NCBI GenBank assembly: GCA_043815505.1
Contig: JBDRIV010000003.1
Coordinates: forward strand, 62,239 to 126,238
Length of the DNA stretch: 64,000 nt
DNA from: a bacterium
GTDB lineage: Bacteria; Patescibacteriota; JABMPQ01; JBDRIV01
Reading direction: 5' to 3'
The notes under the pieces are model-generated. The model ran no database searches. It was given only the letters and a program-made list of their open reading frames with translations, and was not told the origin of the DNA. Shown here piece by piece: positions 7,275-50,607 of this stretch (position 1 is its first letter; each line of letters opens with the position of its first letter). A program made the position numbers and the translations under genes.

Positions 7275-7508
7275 TCACTCGCTACCTTCTCATAAACAAT
7301 TTGAGAAATTTCAGCAATGATATCGGATAAGGCATAAACATCTTTACCGCGAGTTATAACACAAAGTAAATACGGTTGATCGTTAGAATAAAATATTCTT
7401 TTTCATTTTAAAGAAATAATTTTGTAAAGCAAAATAGTTATGCACTCTTATTGTTGCGAAATAAAAATAATTGCTTTAAAATTATAAGTACTATAATTTA
7501 AAAACTAA

Positions 7509-8801
7509 ATGAAAAAGAATTTTTTATTCGTGTCAGCCGACGGATTAATATCCGATGTCGCCTGGCATGTTTTTAAAGAAGGTCATGAAGTGCGACTTTC
7601 TATTGATAATAAAGAAGAGGCTGATGTGGCTGACGGTTTTGTTCCCAAGGTTGCAAATTGGAAAGAGCACGTTGACTGGGCCGATGTGATAGTTTTTGAT
7701 GATGTGCTTGGTTATGGAACAAAGGCTGATAAACTGCGTAAAACTGGTAAGGCAGTAATTGGTGGTACACCTTATATTGATCGTTTGGAAGATGATCGCT
7801 CGTTCGGACAAGAAGAATTGAAGAGGCATGGTATTAATATTTTAACTTATCAAAATTTTACTGATTTCGATGAAGCCATAGGCTTCGTTAAACAGAATCC
7901 TAACCGCTATGTAGTTAAACCTAGTGGTGAAGCCCAAAATCTTAAACGTTTATTGTTTGTTGGTCAAGAAGAAGATGGTAGTGATGTGATAAGAATTTTA
8001 GAGGCTTATAAAAAAGTTTGGATTCATAAAATTAAAATGTTTCAGTTGCAAAAAAGAGTAGACGGCGTTGAAGTAGCTATTGGTGTTTTTTTCAACGGTC
8101 AAGAATTCTTGTCTCCAATAAATGTGAATTTTGAGCATAAAAAATTATTTCCGGGAAATATCGGACCAGCTACCGGTGAAATGGGAACTTCTATGTTTTG
8201 GAGTGAACCAAATAAACTTTTTAATTCAACATTGAAAAAAATGGAAGAAACTTTGCACCTAGAAAATTATGTTGGTTACATCGATTTAAATTGTATTGTT
8301 AATAACTACGGAATTTATCCGCTGGAATTCACCGCCCGCTTTGGTTATCCAACTATCAGCATTCAACAAGAAAGTATGAATATGCCGATTGGAGAATTTT
8401 TATATACCTTGGCTAATAAGGGTCCTAATAATTTCAAGGCTAAAAAAGGTTATCATGTGGGTGTGCGCTTGGTTGTTCCTCCATATCCTTTCCGAGATAA
8501 AAGAACTTTTGATTCTTATTCCAAGGATGCCACGATTGTTTTTAAACATAAAGATAATTTGGACGGTATTCATATTGAAGATGTAAAATTGGTAAATGGT
8601 CAATGGACAGTAACCGGTTCGCGCGGTGTGGCTTTAGTTGTAACTGGTAGTGGCTCAACCATGAAACAAGCACAACAACAGGCCTACAATCGTATTCAAG
8701 ATGTACTAATCCCTAATATGTATTATCGCACTGATATTGGCAATCGTTGGTATGAAGATTTTGATAAACTTCACACTTGGGGTTATTTGCGCGAAATGTA
8801 A
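7509..8801 (+). CDS. ATP-grasp enzyme, PurD-like (phosphoribosylamine--glycine ligase family)
   Basis: 430 aa. The length, the ATP-grasp fold and the LEFTARFGYPT motif (EFNxRFGDPE in PurD) fit. No other pur genes are in the window. Confidence 0.55.
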   Translation: MKKNFLFVSADGLISDVAWHVFKEGHEVRLSIDNKEEADVADGFVPKVANWKEHVDWADVIVFDDVLGYGTKADKLRKTGKAVIGGTPYIDRLEDDRSFGQEELKRHGINILTYQNFTDFDEAIGFVKQNPNRYVVKPSGEAQNLKRLLFVGQEEDGSDVIRILEAYKKVWIHKIKMFQLQKRVDGVEVAIGVFFNGQEFLSPINVNFEHKKLFPGNIGPATGEMGTSMFWSEPNKLFNSTLKKMEETLHLENYVGYIDLNCIVNNYGIYPLEFTARFGYPTISIQQESMNMPIGEFLYTLANKGPNNFKAKKGYHVGVRLVVPPYPFRDKRTFDSYSKDATIVFKHKDNLDGIHIEDVKLVNGQWTVTGSRGVALVVTGSGSTMKQAQQQAYNRIQDVLIPNMYYRTDIGNRWYEDFDKLHTWGYLREM

Positions 8802-17462: not shown

Positions 17463-17867
17463 ATGATTTATGCATGGATTACGCTATCTGCTTTGTTTCT
17501 CATCTTGGGAATCTGGAGACTTATTCGCAGGGTAAATAACCTTGGTTCAAATGCATTTATCGACTCGGCTTGTTTGATTGGTTCAATGCTTGTTATAGCT
17601 GCTGCTGCGGGATTTCTTCTTGGCTTTGTGATTTTCGACCAAAGTAAGTGGTATACAGTTCTTATGATCACATCTGGAGTAGGTCTTCTTGCAACCATTG
17701 GAACGAGTTACTATTACCATCGTGAATACAAGCGTTGTGAAAATAATATGTATTTAAACTATGTTTGTGACAGAGAGATTCAGTATCAAGGTATTTCAAT
17801 AGTTCTCTTGATTATTCTTGTTATTTCAGCTGCTCTGCACTTTGAGATAATATTTACAGGAGGATAA
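17463..17867 (+). CDS. Small membrane protein (134 aa, 4 TM)
   Basis: Near-identical RBS context (AAAGGAGAGAAAAATG) to the preceding gene. Four hydrophobic helices. Confidence 0.5.
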   Translation: MIYAWITLSALFLILGIWRLIRRVNNLGSNAFIDSACLIGSMLVIAAAAGFLLGFVIFDQSKWYTVLMITSGVGLLATIGTSYYYHREYKRCENNMYLNYVCDREIQYQGISIVLLIILVISAALHFEIIFTGG

Positions 17868-18179
17868 TATGTTAAACATATTCTGTGTAAATGTATTTGT
17901 GATTTTTGTTTGAGGCATGATTCTTTCGATTGTTTTTGCCTTGATCTTTAAAAGAAGAGCTGAGAACTTTGTCTGTGTTGACAAAATGCCTAGAGCCAAC
18001 AAAACTGCACTCAACAGAATTATAAAAAAATTGTCCTTTATGGATTAGCATCCGCTTTTGATCCTTTCACTTCTTACAATCTGGGCATGGATGAAGTTTC
18101 CATGATCCAAAACCTATTGATTGAAAACGTCAGGTTTCAACTTGGCGTTTTTTTATTTTACCCCGAGCTGACTAAGGAC

Positions 18180-18208
18180 TTGACAAATATATAAGCATCT
18201 GCTACAAT
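18180..18208 (+). promoter_or_regulatory. Consensus sigma70 promoter TTGACA-N17-TACAAT
   Basis: Perfect -35 and near-perfect -10 with 17-nt spacing. No protein-coding ORF downstream on this strand. Confidence 0.5.
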
Positions 18209-18259
18209 GACATGTTTTGCTGATTTAATGAATTTACGATGAGCCCGCAGGCGAATCGG

Positions 18260-18363
18260 CAACAAAAAACTGTAGACGACTAAGAAGTTTTCTAGTAAGG
18301 ATTCGTGAGGACCTCCTCTTCACATTTCCTTCTAAATTGCTTCTTGTCTACAGTTTTTTGTTG
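18260..18363 (+). ncRNA. Candidate small RNA or structured element: 18-bp perfect inverted repeat enclosing about 68 nt
   Basis: CAACAAAAAACTGTAGAC (18260-18277) pairs perfectly with GTCTACAGTTTTTTGTTG (18346-18363). Lies downstream of the consensus promoter. Confidence 0.3.
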
Positions 18364-18374
18364 GTTCGATTGAA

Positions 18375-18420
18375 CTCGCCACAAGTGGTTCTACAAGCTC
18401 GCCACAAGTGGTTCTACAAG
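18375..18420. repeat. Tandem direct repeat, 2 x 23 bp (CTCGCCACAAGTGGTTCTACAAG)
   Basis: Two perfect adjacent copies. Each contains the dyad CCACAAGTGG. Confidence 0.7.
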
Positions 18421-18457
18421 TTTTGGTTTGAATAATATTAATAGCTCAATGTAAATT

Positions 18458-18712
18458 TTATTTTTTACCGTTAGGATTCAAAATCGCTTCTAAAACCTCT
18501 TTAGCTACGGCTTTTTTCTCAGCTTCTGTTTCGGTATTTTTAGAAAATGATATTTTAATATCTTCTCCTTCTTTAGAGTTTTTTGGAAGTAAATTTAAGG
18601 GTAACTCAAAACGTCCAATGGCTTCATTGGTGGCTACAAAACGGTCAGTTGTGATTTCCACAACTTTAGCAACTATCTTGGGATAGTATTTATCTAAAAC
18701 TTCGTCTGGCAT
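18458..18712 (-). CDS. Hypothetical protein (84 aa)
   Basis: ORF with a charged C-terminus. Its start codon is directly abutted by the MITE-like element and there is no canonical RBS. Confidence 0.35.
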   Translation of the reverse strand: MPDEVLDKYYPKIVAKVVEITTDRFVATNEAIGRFELPLNLLPKNSKEGEDIKISFSKNTETEAEKKAVAKEVLEAILNPNGKK

Positions 18713-18812
18713 CCCGGTAGTACAACTTATTGATAAATTGATTTGTTTACCTTTCTTTTATTTTTGTAGAAAGGATTATTTTGTTCTTTTCTCACCCGGT
18801 TGTACTACCGGG
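18713..18812. repeat. MITE-like element, 100 bp, 14-bp terminal inverted repeats CCCGGTAGTACAAC / GTTGTACTACCGGG
   Basis: Perfect 14-bp TIRs and an AT-rich interior with an internal hairpin (CCTTTCT/AGAAAGG). Related element at 46126..46234. Confidence 0.5.
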
Positions 18813-18901
18813 CATAATTTAGGGCAAATATTAAAACTCAAAAATCAAAACTGTTAAGTGAACATGCAAATATAGCACGGGATTTTTTGATAGTCAATAA
18901 A

Positions 18902-18934
18902 ACTCCGCTCATTAATACTTGGCGGAGTTTTTTG
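18902..18934. terminator. Bidirectional hairpin terminator (ACTCCGC-N13-GCGGAGT) at the clpC 3' end
   Basis: 7-bp stem flanked by an A-run and TTTTTT. Confidence 0.45.
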
Positions 18935-18978
18935 GTCAAATCAAGTTTTTACTTTTGAGCTTTAACTTTTGACTTATT

Positions 18979-21666
18979 TTACACCTTAGCTTTTTTCCGA
19001 CTGCGCTTTGATTTTTCTTTAATGAAATTGAATTCGCCATTTCTACCTAGTTCAATTCTAATGGTATTTCCGCTTCTAAAATCTCCTGTCAGCAAAGCGT
19101 TGGAAAGTCGGTTTTCAATTTTCTTTTGAATTACTCGACGCAGAGGCCGGGCTCCAAATGATGGTTCAAAACCTTCCTCAACTAATTTTCTCTTTACGCC
19201 GTCAGTTACTTTTAATTTTATGTTTTGTCCTTGCAAAAGCTTCTGCACATCATCCAACATCAAATTTACAATTTGTTTAATCTGTTTTCTGTTCAGTGAT
19301 TGAAAAATTATAATGTCGTCGATTCGATTCAAAAACTCGGGACGAAAAGCTTTTTTCAATTCCTGCATCAACTCACCTTTAATAGTTTCAGTAATGCTTC
19401 CCTTTTCATCTTTTTTACCTTTTTTATCTTCAAAACCAAATTTTTTAACGGCCGCGTCCTGAATAATATTGGAACCCAAATTTGAAGTAGCAATAATAAC
19501 TACATTTTTAAAATCCACCAAACGACCTTTAGAATCTGTGAGTTGACCATCTTCCAAGATTTGCAACAGCACATTAAAGACGTCAGGATGAGCTTTTTCA
19601 ATTTCATCAAGCAACACAATGCTATATGGTTTTTGTCGAACTTTTTCTGTTAGCTGTCCTGGTTCTTCATAACCAACATATCCGGGAGGCGCACCAATAA
19701 GTTTGGAAACATTATGACGCTCCATGTATTCTGACATATCAACTCGCACAATGGCCGATTCATCACCAAACAATTGTTCAGCCAAAGCTTTGGCCAATTC
19801 AGTTTTTCCCACGCCAGTCGGTCCGAGGAATATAAATGAACCTACTGGACGTTTCGGATCTTTTAAACCACTACGTCCACGACGTACAGCTTCGGACACG
19901 GCGGTAACAGCTTCTTCTTGTCCAATTATTCTTTCGTGTAATCTGTTTTCCAAATGTAAAAGTTTTTCAACTTCCTCTTCAGCTAATTCCTGCACTGGAA
20001 TTCCTGTCCACTTGGAAAGCACTTCTTCAATATCAGAAGATAAAACAATTGGTTGACCAGTAGATCTATCTTTAGTCCAAGAAGCGTGGAACTCTTCTTT
20101 TTGTTGAGTTAGTTTGGTAATTTCTTTTTCAATTTTTATGATTCTAGATTTAACACCAGCTTTTTTGGCATCCTCTTTTTCGTTGGCCAGTTTTTTTAAT
20201 TCCTTTTCCAGTTCTTTTAATTTATTAGGAGCGGCAATTGAAGCTAAACGAATTTTGGCACCAGCTTCATCAATTAAGTCTATGGCCTTGTCGGGCAAAT
20301 GACGGTCAGTCAAATATCTATCAGAAAGTCCCGCCGCCGCTACAATCGCTTCGTCAGAAATCTGCACTTTGTGATGAGCTTCATAACGATCGCGCAAGCC
20401 TCGCAGAATTTCAATAGAGACATCAACGTTTGGTTCATTAACAAGAATTGGCTGGAATCTTCTTTCTAAAGCGGCATCTTTTTCAATGTGTTTACGATAC
20501 TCATTCAAAGTAGTAGCCCCAATGGTTTGCAGTTCACCACGAGCGAGGGCTGGTTTTAGCATATTAGAAGCGTCAATGGCACCTTCGGCGGCACCGGCAC
20601 CAACCATAGTATGCATTTCATCAATAAAGAGAATTATATTGCGTTGTTCTTTTTTAATTTCTTCAATTACTTTTTTAATACGTTTTTCAAATTCACCACG
20701 ATATTTGGTTCCCGAAAGCGCACTACTTAAATCAAGCGAGACTACTCTTTTGCCAACTAGATTTTCTGGCACGTCGTCAGAAACTATTTTGGTAGCCAAT
20801 CCTTCCACAATCGCAGTTTTTCCTACACCCGGTTCACCAATTAACACTGGATTATTTTTTGTGCGTCGCGACAAAATTTGTACCACTCTTTCAATTTCAT
20901 CTTCCCGACCAATAACGGGATCGAGCCGACCGTCTTTAGCTTGAGTTGTTAAATCGGTTGAGTATTCATCTAGAGTTGGGGTGTTAGATTTTTTCTTTTT
21001 AATTCTTTTTCCTTCACCGACAACTTTTAGAACTGCGCCGCGAGCCTTGGTGTCGTTAACAGCATATTTTCCGAGAACTTGAGCGGCCATGCCTTCACCT
21101 TCTTTAACCAGTCCTAAAAAAATATGTTCGGAACTAACATAGTTGTGACCAAGATCGCGCGCTTCATAAAAAGCTTGCTCTAAGGCTTTTTTAGCACGGG
21201 GAGAAAGCTCCGGTTCGCCAACTTCTTTTTCGCCTTTGATTAAATTTTCTTCTAAATAAGCTTTTAGATCTTCAGTTTTAATTCCCAGTTCTGAAAATAT
21301 TTGTTTGGTAATTTCATCTTCATCTAAAAGCCCCCGTAAAATGTGCTCCGTATCAACCATTTGTGATTTGTTATCACGTGCTGCCTGCACACTATTACTG
21401 ATTACTTTTTTAGCTCGGTCAGAAAAATAGTCCAAAATATTTATGTAAGAACGACGCGGCGCTTGAAATTGTGGCAAACCACCAAACAAATTATTTGAAC
21501 CGCCTAGCATAGAAGAAAACATTCCGTCGTTACCAAAAATAGCCTGTTCTTCAGCACAGGTATGACACAAATGAAATTCTTGGGTGCGCCCATTAACATT
21601 TTGTTTGATATTGACTGTTGCCGGACGTTGTCCGCAAGACTGACAAAGGTAAGCTCTATTATCCAT
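18979..21666 (-). CDS. clpC: ATP-dependent Clp protease ATP-binding subunit / ClpC-ClpB-family chaperone with N-terminal C4 zinc ribbon
   Basis: 895 aa. Two AAA+ modules ([31 protein letters not shown]), a coiled-coil middle domain, and an N-terminal CxxC...CxxC motif. Confidence 0.85.
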
Positions 21667-21695: not shown

Positions 21696-21722
21696 TTAGC
21701 ACTCTAAAGTGTTGAGTGCTAA
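21696..21722. promoter_or_regulatory. CIRCE operator (HrcA binding site) TTAGCACTC-N9-GAGTGCTAA
   Basis: Perfect match to the CIRCE consensus, 30 bp upstream of the clpC start. Confidence 0.85.
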
Positions 21723-45987: not shown

Positions 45988-46125
45988 ATGCCTAAAAGAA
46001 CGTATCAACCGAAAAAAAGAAAGCGAGCCAAGACTCACGGTTTTACCAAAAGAATGCGTACCAAAAATGGACGTAATGTTCTTAAACGTCGTCGCGCCAA
46101 AGGTCGCAAAAAGCTGACTGTTTAA
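45988..46125 (+). CDS. rpmH: 50S ribosomal protein L34
   Basis: 45 aa, [45 protein letters not shown]. Not in the ORF track because it is short. Immediately precedes rnpA as in most bacteria. Confidence 0.85.
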
Positions 46126-46234
46126 CCCTGTAGTACAACCTTATAATGTATTTATTATAATTATGCTTTCAATTAGTTTTCGCAAAACAATAACAATCAT
46201 CTTAGTGTTACAACAAAAAAGTTGTACTACTGGG
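46126..46234. repeat. MITE-like element, 109 bp, TIRs CCCTGTAGTACAAC / GTTGTACTACTGGG, filling the rpmH-rnpA spacer
   Basis: Starts at the base after the rpmH stop codon and ends 14 nt before the rnpA ATG. Same TIR core as the element at 18713..18812. Confidence 0.5.
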
Positions 46235-46248
46235 TTTAAAACCTTATA

Positions 46249-46590
46249 ATGCTTCCGAAAAAGAATCGCATACTTAAAGATAAAGAATTCTCCTACCTTT
46301 ATCGGAAAGGCAAGTTTGTCAGCTGTGGTTGTATAATGATGAAATATTTACCTACCACCAAAGATGCTCCCTCTCGTTTCGGAATTGTAATTTCTACCAA
46401 AGTTTCAAAGAAATCTACGATTCGCAATAAAATTAAAAGACAGATCCGCGACGTTCTTAAAAAGAACTTCTCAAAATTTTCTACCGGTTACGACGCCGTT
46501 ATCATGACCAATCAGAATATTCTGGAAAAAAGTTATACTGAAATTGAAGAAGCGCTAAATAAATTATTTGCCAAAGCTAAATTTATATAA
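46249..46590 (+). CDS. rnpA: RNase P protein component
   Basis: 113 aa. Basic, with RnpA motifs (RNKIKRQIRDVL). Confidence 0.85.
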   Translation: MLPKKNRILKDKEFSYLYRKGKFVSCGCIMMKYLPTTKDAPSRFGIVISTKVSKKSTIRNKIKRQIRDVLKKNFSKFSTGYDAVIMTNQNILEKSYTEIEEALNKLFAKAKFI

Positions 46591-50312: not shown

Positions 50313-50607
50313 TTGTTTTTGTTTTATATGTTTTTTTATGGGGATGAAAAAAGCGCTATTTCAGGCGCTTTTGCAGAGGATTATTACACTTGTTATTATA
50401 GCATATCTTTACATTATAGTCAATATGTTTTATGATATAAGTTATCCTTGTAGAAAAACCCTTGATTATTCCCTATTTTAAGGGATAAACTAAAGATTGA
50501 ATAAATGGATTTAAAATGGTACTCTAAGTTTATAAAAATAAGCCCGGTAGTACAATCCGGGTGTAAATACATACAAACAAAAATTGATCAGTAATTGTAC
50601 TATCAGG

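Follow-up and report, generated by a model that had tools for sequence, protein, structure and literature searches.

Start-codon hairpins in a Patescibacteria genome as probable members of a very small mobile-element family whose coding form carries a GIY-YIG nuclease gene

Is a 100-bp inverted-repeat sequence that ends exactly where a gene begins a mobile element or a control module of the gene behind it? The question is raised by a locus in a 64,000-nucleotide stretch of a Patescibacteria genome (the whole stretch analyzed, hereafter the window; G+C ~36%), in which CCCGGTAGTACAAC at 18713-18726 and GTTGTACTACCGGG at 18799-18812 form a perfect 14-bp inverted repeat. The initial annotation, which read the locus as a miniature inverted-repeat transposable element (MITE), was right about these terminal inverted repeats (TIRs) of the 100-bp element, about an inner hairpin (CCTTTCT at 18750-18756 with AGAAAGG at 18768-18774, present in the sequence and again in the predicted fold) and about the contact with the ATG of an 84-aa gene: CAT at 18710-18712 on the forward strand is the start codon of this minus-strand open reading frame (ORF), and therefore the element, which we call E1, begins at the adjoining base. 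Joined to 18795-18798, its gene-distal TIR makes an 18-nt near-palindrome, CCCGGTTGTACTACCGGG. The coding content of E1 is confined to a 7-codon upstream ORF (uORF; MPGSTTG, then a stop), which is opened by the ATG of the upstream target copy and runs from 18815 down to 18792. The E1 RNA folds in the gene sense with -34.6 kcal/mol (z = -6.2 against shuffled sequences), and since a promoter-like site lies upstream, E1 would be part of the 5' UTR (Table 1).

Two further elements lie in the window. A second one had been claimed at 46126-46234, and this held, with arms complementary at 13 of 14 positions (E2; RNA fold z = -3.1 against shuffled sequences). What had been listed as a solo motif at 50543-50563 is not solo: a partner arm, ATTGTACTATCAGG, lies at 50594-50607, and therefore E3 is a complete 65-bp element, adjoining the start of a Polysacc_synt flippase gene. 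The E3 arms are complementary at 13 of 14 positions with one G-T counted and carry a matched C>T / G>A change at the inner end; the E3 RNA folds no better than shuffled sequences (z = -1.2). Upon scanning the window with the two-arm pattern, we obtained five matches from the three elements, of which two match on both strands, where 100 shuffles gave an expectation of 0.00. The 14-mer with up to 3 mismatches matched seven times, against 1.5 expected, and these single-arm matches comprise the six arms of E1-E3 and one self-palindromic match. Read in gene orientation, all three elements have a distal arm that reads ...GTAGTACAAY and a proximal arm that reads RTTGTACTA.... No similarity could be detected among the interiors of E1-E3, or between these and the nuclease ORF described below; membership of the three elements rests on TIRs, position and flanks. 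As a separate observation, CCGGG follows the gene-distal arm in E1 (18795-18812) and E3 (50543-50561), as it does in two other copies (L070 and L092); arm and CCGGG together give a near-palindrome of 18-19 nt, CCCGGTWGTACWACCGGG, which could fold on itself rather than pair with the proximal arm. This arrangement may represent either a trait of a subfamily or a mini-copy that has collapsed. In E2, the 12-mer AACCTTATAATG, which comprises the rnpA ribosome-binding region and ATG at 46240-46251, recurs inside the element at 46137-46148, where it overlaps the end of the 5' arm and opens a 4-codon ORF (MYLL, then a stop); the canonical insertion model does not account for this repeat.

Table 1. Positions of the elements and associated features in the window
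Feature	Position	Strand	Description
E1	18713..18812	-	Probable 100-bp non-autonomous element in the same orientation as the 84-aa gene; basis: TIRs, RNA fold, family membership
E1 gene-distal (5') TIR	18799..18812	-	Reads CCCGGTAGTACAAC on the minus strand
E1 gene-proximal (3') TIR	18713..18726	-	Reads GTTGTACTACCGGG on the minus strand, followed at once by the host ATG
E1 upstream copy of putative duplicated target	18813..18816	-	TATG on the minus strand; family-wide flank also TATG
E1 downstream copy of putative duplicated target	18710..18712	-	Start codon of the 84-aa gene; usual 1-nt spacer absent
Host gene of E1 (84-aa protein)	18458..18712	-	Weakly DUF3006-like (Pfam E 3.5e-4); syntenic, downstream of clpC
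Sigma-70-like promoter, TTGACT-17-TATATT	18869..18897	-	Upstream of E1; consensus match only
E2	46126..46234	+	109 bp, between rpmH stop and rnpA start; arms 46126-46139 and 46221-46234
E2 left direct repeat	46121..46125	+	TTTAA; contains the rpmH stop codon TAA
E2 right direct repeat	46235..46239	+	TTTAA; sequence reading
E3	50543..50607	+	65 bp; arms 50543-50556 and 50594-50607 (one mismatch, one G-T); adjoins ATG 50608

A search for further TIR pairs, as the initial annotation had proposed, returned many copies in CPR genomes and metagenomes. The two-arm pattern, run on one genome per species with no flank requirement, hit 35 loci, of which about 24 were in CPR metagenome-assembled genomes (MAGs) of many lineages, including Saccharibacteria, Moranbacteria, Parcubacteria, Paceibacterota and Jorgensenbacteria, and matched on both strands, while single-strand matches in other phyla came to approximately the number expected by chance (some tens, by a hand estimate). 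In metagenomes, at least 120 contigs matched one arm with an adjacent YATR flank, and a single MAG (WY1.bin77) holds four copies. Viral contigs gave 0 matches to the TIR pattern, and we rejected carriage by phage on this ground. Among the genome and metagenome matches listed, 126 unique paired elements made up the family set. Their TIRs (CCCGGTAGTACAAC...GTTGTACTACCGGG) have a median length of 19 bp, and the lengths of the elements cluster at ~60-70, 96-109, 117-139 and 298-327 bp; as copies were found via the TIRs, the apparent TIR conservation is partly due to the search method. One bona fide both-strand copy (L021, CAZDJC010000013.1) comes from a MAG labelled 'uncultured Gammaproteobacteria'; either the MAG is misbinned or mislabelled, or this copy does lie outside CPR. 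Another locus (L028, 6872-7050) holds a nested or tandem pair, with an outer CATA-CCCGG...CCGGG-CATA ~180 bp apart and an extra inner arm, TATACCCACTAGTACAAC.

The initial annotation had also suggested looking for target-site duplications. The four bases just outside CCCGG...CCGGG are identical direct repeats, mostly TATG, in 87 of the 126 listed elements (CATA/CATA 44, TATG/TATG 29, CATG 8, TATA 4, AAAG 1, TAAG 1) and inverted-only in 1 of 126. Being direct and not inverted, these flanks are not an extension of the stem, and from the sequences they look like a 4-bp target-site duplication with a strong TATG preference. The metagenome pattern demanded YATR on one flank; in the genome set, which carried no flank requirement, direct repeats were tallied at 16 of 23 copies. 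All three elements of the window are atypical in this respect, with E1 showing a 3-nt ATG repeat and no spacer, E2 having TTTAA flanks and lying 14 nt upstream of the ATG, and E3 being degenerate (TAAG on one side, ATGT on the other).

An adjoining start codon is the rule for the whole TIR family. A long ORF starts at the ATG beside the TIR in 93 of the 126 listed elements, with nearly all of these ATGs 1 nt from the TIR, and 12 of 24 copies were tallied on start codons in the genome set without a flank requirement. After rebuilding 70 empty alleles by removing the element together with one repeat copy, we found an in-frame stop within 60 nt upstream in 56 of them, and therefore these are true start codons; the duplicated ATG was the first possible start in 41 of the 70. 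As a baseline, start codons make up 3.7% of all TATG sites in the window and 31% of the non-disruptive ones, i.e., those outside coding sequence. The host genes are unrelated and include those for SMC, a Wzy-like protein, RecG, starch synthase, an ABC ATPase, an AI-2E transporter, a histidine kinase, S4, UvrD and RuvB. Insertion at internal methionines was rejected on account of the in-frame stops just upstream, and an in-frame N-terminal extension of the host protein on account of the mixed frames (28/20/19). Coupling through the uORF in short copies was rejected as well, since the distance from its stop codon to the host ATG usually exceeds 60 nt.

The 298-327-bp copies encode a GIY-YIG nuclease of 93-104 aa, translated from the upstream duplicated ATG, with the pattern MPGSTT...(F/Y)WYVYVL...YIGFT...RRE.YLKTTGGRRFLAKRLK. 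Its N-terminus is encoded by the 5' TIR (ATG CCC GGT AGT ACA AC), and in 13 intact copies 9-30 nt separate its stop from the host ATG, which usually places the stop within the 3' TIR or immediately ahead of it. In assembled genomes, such nuclease elements occur in the secY-adk interval (L160), ahead of a Wzy_C gene (L161, reading tatATG, then CCCGGTAGTACAACTTCGAA...TAA TTCGAAGTTGTACTACCGGGT, then ATG) and ahead of infC (L162-L165). In Pfam, the ORF matched PF01541 (E 8e-17 to 2e-13) and, more weakly, T5orf172, and no established transposase class (DDE, DEDD, HUH, serine or tyrosine); in NCBIfam, only a sub-threshold match to a group I intron endonuclease was obtained. The nearest solved sequences are the UPF0213 proteins 1zg2 (E 3.8e-6) and 1ywl, and an AlphaFold model (pLDDT 90.7) has 1zg2, Slx1 and At-HIGLE as nearest folds, with I-TevI at only E 0.5. 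The protein thus modeled is the catalytic domain alone, without a separate DNA-binding domain. Among close homologues, 33 of 73 start with MPGSTT and most others with variants of it; those with names are each called 'GIY-YIG nuclease family protein' and belong to Uhrbacteria, Sungbacteria or Parcubacteria. At E up to 1e-10, the wider family comprises 590 clusters. Whenever an identical nuclease protein turned up in more than one sample, it occupied the same locus each time, so recent transposition of the coding form is not supported. Many distant members of the nuclease family (P0204, P0217, P0237 and others) have N-terminal extensions ending TGGAGF, a Rossmann-fold motif of epimerases and dehydratases, and many end ...YLTG, which suggests, from sequence, that there are sister subfamilies whose repeat ends and insertion sites differ, the latter possibly falling within the 5' portions of genes.

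With this gene in view, it may be asked whether the elements are instead MITEs moved by a conventional transposase (DDE or other) with the same TIRs, the GIY-YIG ORF being a passenger or a nested gene. To our knowledge, GIY-YIG nucleases are no established class of DNA transposase, and a 4-bp duplication at a near-palindromic target resembles IS5-/IS1380-type behavior. We nevertheless consider this reading quite improbable: every ~300-bp element found holds a GIY-YIG ORF and nothing else, PF01541 is the only domain in that ORF by Pfam, the ORF is built into the TIRs with its N-terminus in the 5' TIR and its stop at the 3' TIR, and around solo arms we found no convincing TIR pair 0.45-3.5 kb apart that would enclose a larger gene. 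The same evidence bears on a palindromic element of the REP/REPIN type with RAYT, or of the single-strand IS200/IS605 (HUH) type, sitting beside a fixed tetranucleotide. The resemblance is real, as each arm is a near-palindrome containing GTAG, the inverted arm pairs form long REPIN-like hairpins, and insertion beside TATG is orientation-specific. No Y1/RAYT or TnpA gene was seen, however, the TIR-bounded gene being that of the GIY-YIG nuclease, with no larger TIR-bounded unit found; the ends are symmetric TIRs and not differing left and right hairpins; non-TATG direct repeats (AAAG, TAAG, TATA and TTTAA) occur, as a true duplication of variable sequence predicts; and REP/REPIN sequences lie downstream of genes, whereas this family sits at start codons. 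Such an origin is highly improbable.

How the coding and short forms are related can be read from intermediates. Remnants of the ORF are recognizable at the protein level in several short copies (L063, with E 1e-12, as well as L001 and L012/L153), and one copy of 172 bp (L154) is intermediate between the two forms. Among the matches listed, a 138-bp non-coding subfamily has 26 copies with a mean identity of 83% over the whole element, while no relationship is seen between their flanking sequences (28% identity), with only 1 orthologous pair among them. Every 138-bp copy has TATG on both sides and points the same way with respect to the host ORF, the same arm, bearing a G variant, always being distal to that ORF. 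By its sequence, this subfamily is a non-coding element that has been amplified to ~25 different start codons, and placement and orientation are therefore independent of coding.

The initial annotation had pointed to empty sites in relatives as a further check, and in relatives at ~40-65% protein identity the orthologous positions of both E1 and E2 are empty. Orthologues of the 84-aa gene at two loci (L037 and L039; BLASTP E 2e-8 and 3e-6) have ordinary upstream sequence without an element, in a region of kept synteny (hsp20-clpC-small gene...ruvB; nearest ClpC relatives at 60-65% identity), and the syntenic 22-kb loci of relatives contain no copy of the TIR element. The rpmH-rnpA spacer measures 123 nt in the window versus 3 nt (L176-L178) or 34 nt (L174) in relatives, and removal of E2 with one TTTAA copy leaves 9 nt. 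The predicted empty sites are CCCTAAATTATGCCAGACGAAG for E1 and CTGACTGTTTAAAACCTTATAATGCTTCC for E2. Conversely, ruvB has an element in L023 and none in the window or in L036-L039. Filled and empty versions of one site were not found at the level of strains.

These data leave little room for a pair of operator sites, in which a DNA-binding regulator would occupy the two near-palindromic boxes and loop out the DNA in between. Each arm nearly matches a GTWGTACWAC palindrome and the arm spacings of 86, 95 and 51 bp approximate whole helical turns, but the spacing ranges from ~36 to 327 bp across the family, no coherent regulon emerges, and the direct-repeat flanks, the coding larger copies and the empty orthologous sites do not fit. 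The probability of this reading is close to negligible, and coding copies and flank duplications effectively refute it. Regulon or operator control in general was rejected with it, the downstream genes being unrelated.

A more serious contender is that the hairpin is primarily a host regulatory module, such as a 5'-UTR stem that sequesters the start or an RNase III site, either kept or exapted. With a good sigma-70-like promoter upstream, E1 would be transcribed, its stem is very stable and ends at the AUG, its TIRs are perfect while its interior is unrelated to those of other copies, and in E3 the inner arm pair is altered on both sides. We still judge a regulatory role of this kind unlikely: relatives do not conserve the hairpin at the orthologous sites, the genes behind the copies have unrelated functions, one subfamily has a G-A mismatch in the stem throughout, no Rfam match was obtained and the E3 fold is weak (z = -1.2), and direct repeats together with descent from a coding element explain the anatomy. 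The alternative named by the initial annotation, a conserved RNA processing or attenuation module, is unsupported as an origin, as there is no regulon, no Rfam match and no relation among the interiors. That annotation had held that a lack of further copies combined with conservation at orthologous positions would speak for regulation over mobility; we found many copies, and the orthologous sites are empty. A known RNA family was rejected, with Rfam giving nothing at the gathering threshold across the whole window and nothing meaningful at E up to 1; at the latter setting the region 17800-19000 showed just two chance-level matches, elsewhere in that region. An integron attC site and a bulge-helix-bulge intron, suggested by the AAC...GTT cores and exact direct repeats, were dropped because conservation continues past the putative R boxes and there is no pairing between the flanks.

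We conclude that E1-E3 are very probably non-autonomous, MITE-type members of a very small mobile-element family of CPR/Patescibacteria. The MITE reading of the initial annotation is thereby upheld at the level of the family, which combines small non-coding copies, common TIRs, target duplication, dispersed amplified copies and empty sites. A putative autonomous partner with the same TIRs, the nuclease-coding form, occurs in other genomes, and none was found in the 64-kb window, where the best tblastn match to a GIY-YIG gene of the TIR family had E 0.2.

We propose the following scheme. The full-length element of ~300 bp would consist of TIRs of 14-22 bp around one UPF0213/Slx1-like GIY-YIG ORF and have neither a start codon nor a ribosome-binding site of its own; it would be placed at a host TATG, which is then present on both sides. 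The upstream TATG copy, behind the host 5' UTR, would supply the ATG of the nuclease, with PGSTT coming from the 5' TIR, and the downstream copy, 1 nt after the 3' TIR, would serve as the start codon of the host gene. The nuclease may cut at the TIRs, perhaps at the base of a hairpin or cruciform, and drive insertion with a 4-nt stagger; its relatives by fold cleave branched DNA, and a hairpin or cruciform would be in keeping with such an activity. In full-length copies, the host gene would be translated by termination-reinitiation. Internal deletion would produce TIR hairpins of 60-150 bp that are still multiplied in trans, E1-E3 being such copies. The E1 transcript would still form the hairpin, which would probably modulate and not abolish translation of the 84-aa gene, and the hairpins of the window may be tolerated remnants that perhaps dampen translation. 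As start-codon placement is also seen in the non-coding derivatives, a targeting mechanism or a retention filter is implied.

The parent coding element may represent a new class. We hold it to be an even matter whether E1-E3 are relics of an undescribed transposon class with a sole protein of ~95 aa, a GIY-YIG nuclease, in which an element devoid of start codon and ribosome-binding site integrates in fixed orientation at TATG start codons, the nuclease is expressed from the translation signals of the host, and the host gene starts anew at the duplicated ATG. We know of no DNA transposon that is driven by a GIY-YIG fold, and neither the motif nor CPR MITEs nor GIY-YIG elements or transposons bounded by TIRs were described in the literature searched, which excludes most subscription journals. 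Little work has been devoted to mobile elements in CPR/Patescibacteria, whose genomes are tiny and streamlined. At ~300 bp, the family appears to be among the smallest gene-carrying mobile elements known. If the proposed class is real, it adds a nuclease fold to the drivers of DNA transposons and exemplifies a parasitic strategy of borrowing the start codon and ribosome-binding region of a host gene. It would also give a common explanation to hundreds of 'GIY-YIG nuclease family protein' genes that begin with MPGSTT and to hairpins before housekeeping genes, and start codons beside the TIR repeats could be assigned with confidence in annotation.

Known bacterial MITEs whose TIRs form hairpins in transcripts include the Correia elements of Neisseria, enterobacterial ERIC/IRU and pneumococcal RUP. 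The short copies described here resemble them in being non-coding, 60-150 bp long and numerous, in their TIRs and short target duplication, and in their presumed multiplication in trans and predicted co-transcription with neighbors as a stable hairpin. Unlike these MITEs, they have a coding partner of ~300 bp with a single GIY-YIG ORF and not a DDE insertion sequence, they lie exactly on start codons in one orientation with a 4-bp, mostly TATG duplication, and the core of their TIRs has been conserved throughout an entire superphylum. Free-standing GIY-YIG homing endonuclease genes (phage T4 Seg, I-TevI) are likewise small and selfish, wedged between conserved host genes (compare secY and adk) and prone to decay after insertion. 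In contrast to Seg and I-TevI, the present nuclease is a catalytic domain only, at 93-104 aa, and its fold is nearer to UPF0213 and Slx1; its gene is bounded by TIRs and direct repeats at many unrelated loci as opposed to one cognate homing site, and the family has non-coding derivatives that multiply. The best sequence matches (1zg2, 1ywl) and best folds (1zg2, Slx1, At-HIGLE) ally the protein with UPF0213/COG2827 (YhbQ-like) and Slx1/HIGLE, from which it differs in that its gene lies within TIRs, one of which encodes the N-terminus; no report of UPF0213/COG2827/Slx1-type proteins as genes of mobile elements was found in the literature searched.

Several further features were noted around these loci. 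A perfect CIRCE element (TTAGCACTC-N9-GAGTGCTAA) lies at 21696-21722 on the minus strand, with a promoter-like TTGACA...TACAAT site on one side and the clpC ribosome-binding site, GGAGG, on the other. Its position before clpC would imply control of the hsp20-clpC region by HrcA, and from the GGAGG it follows that this genome uses Shine-Dalgarno sites, in contrast to the sequence before the genes of E1 and E3. Downstream of the 84-aa gene, the ORF-free stretch of 400 nt at 18052-18457, especially 18260-18363 and ~18375-18420, contains a perfect 18-bp inverted repeat (CAACAAAAAACTGTAGAC...GTCTACAGTTTTTTGTTG, 68 nt apart) and two tandem copies of a 23-nt unit, CTTGTAGAACCACTTGTGGCGAG; it had no Rfam match and could be a small RNA or another repeat family. 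Just upstream of rpmH lies a gene for a 23S rRNA intervening-sequence protein (PF05635; 45372-45950), and on the contig with the nuclease element between secY and adk a PF05635-family gene (L160, 14323-14688) stands between two tRNA-synt_2 gene fragments, as if splitting that gene. Finally, the start of the gene at 7509 has a 23-nt inverted copy with 96% complementarity (AAATGAAAAAGAAT.TTTTATTC; 7386-7408 / 7507-7529), which sits 98 nt upstream of the gene and on the other strand gives a 7-codon pseudo-start (MKKNILF, then a stop).
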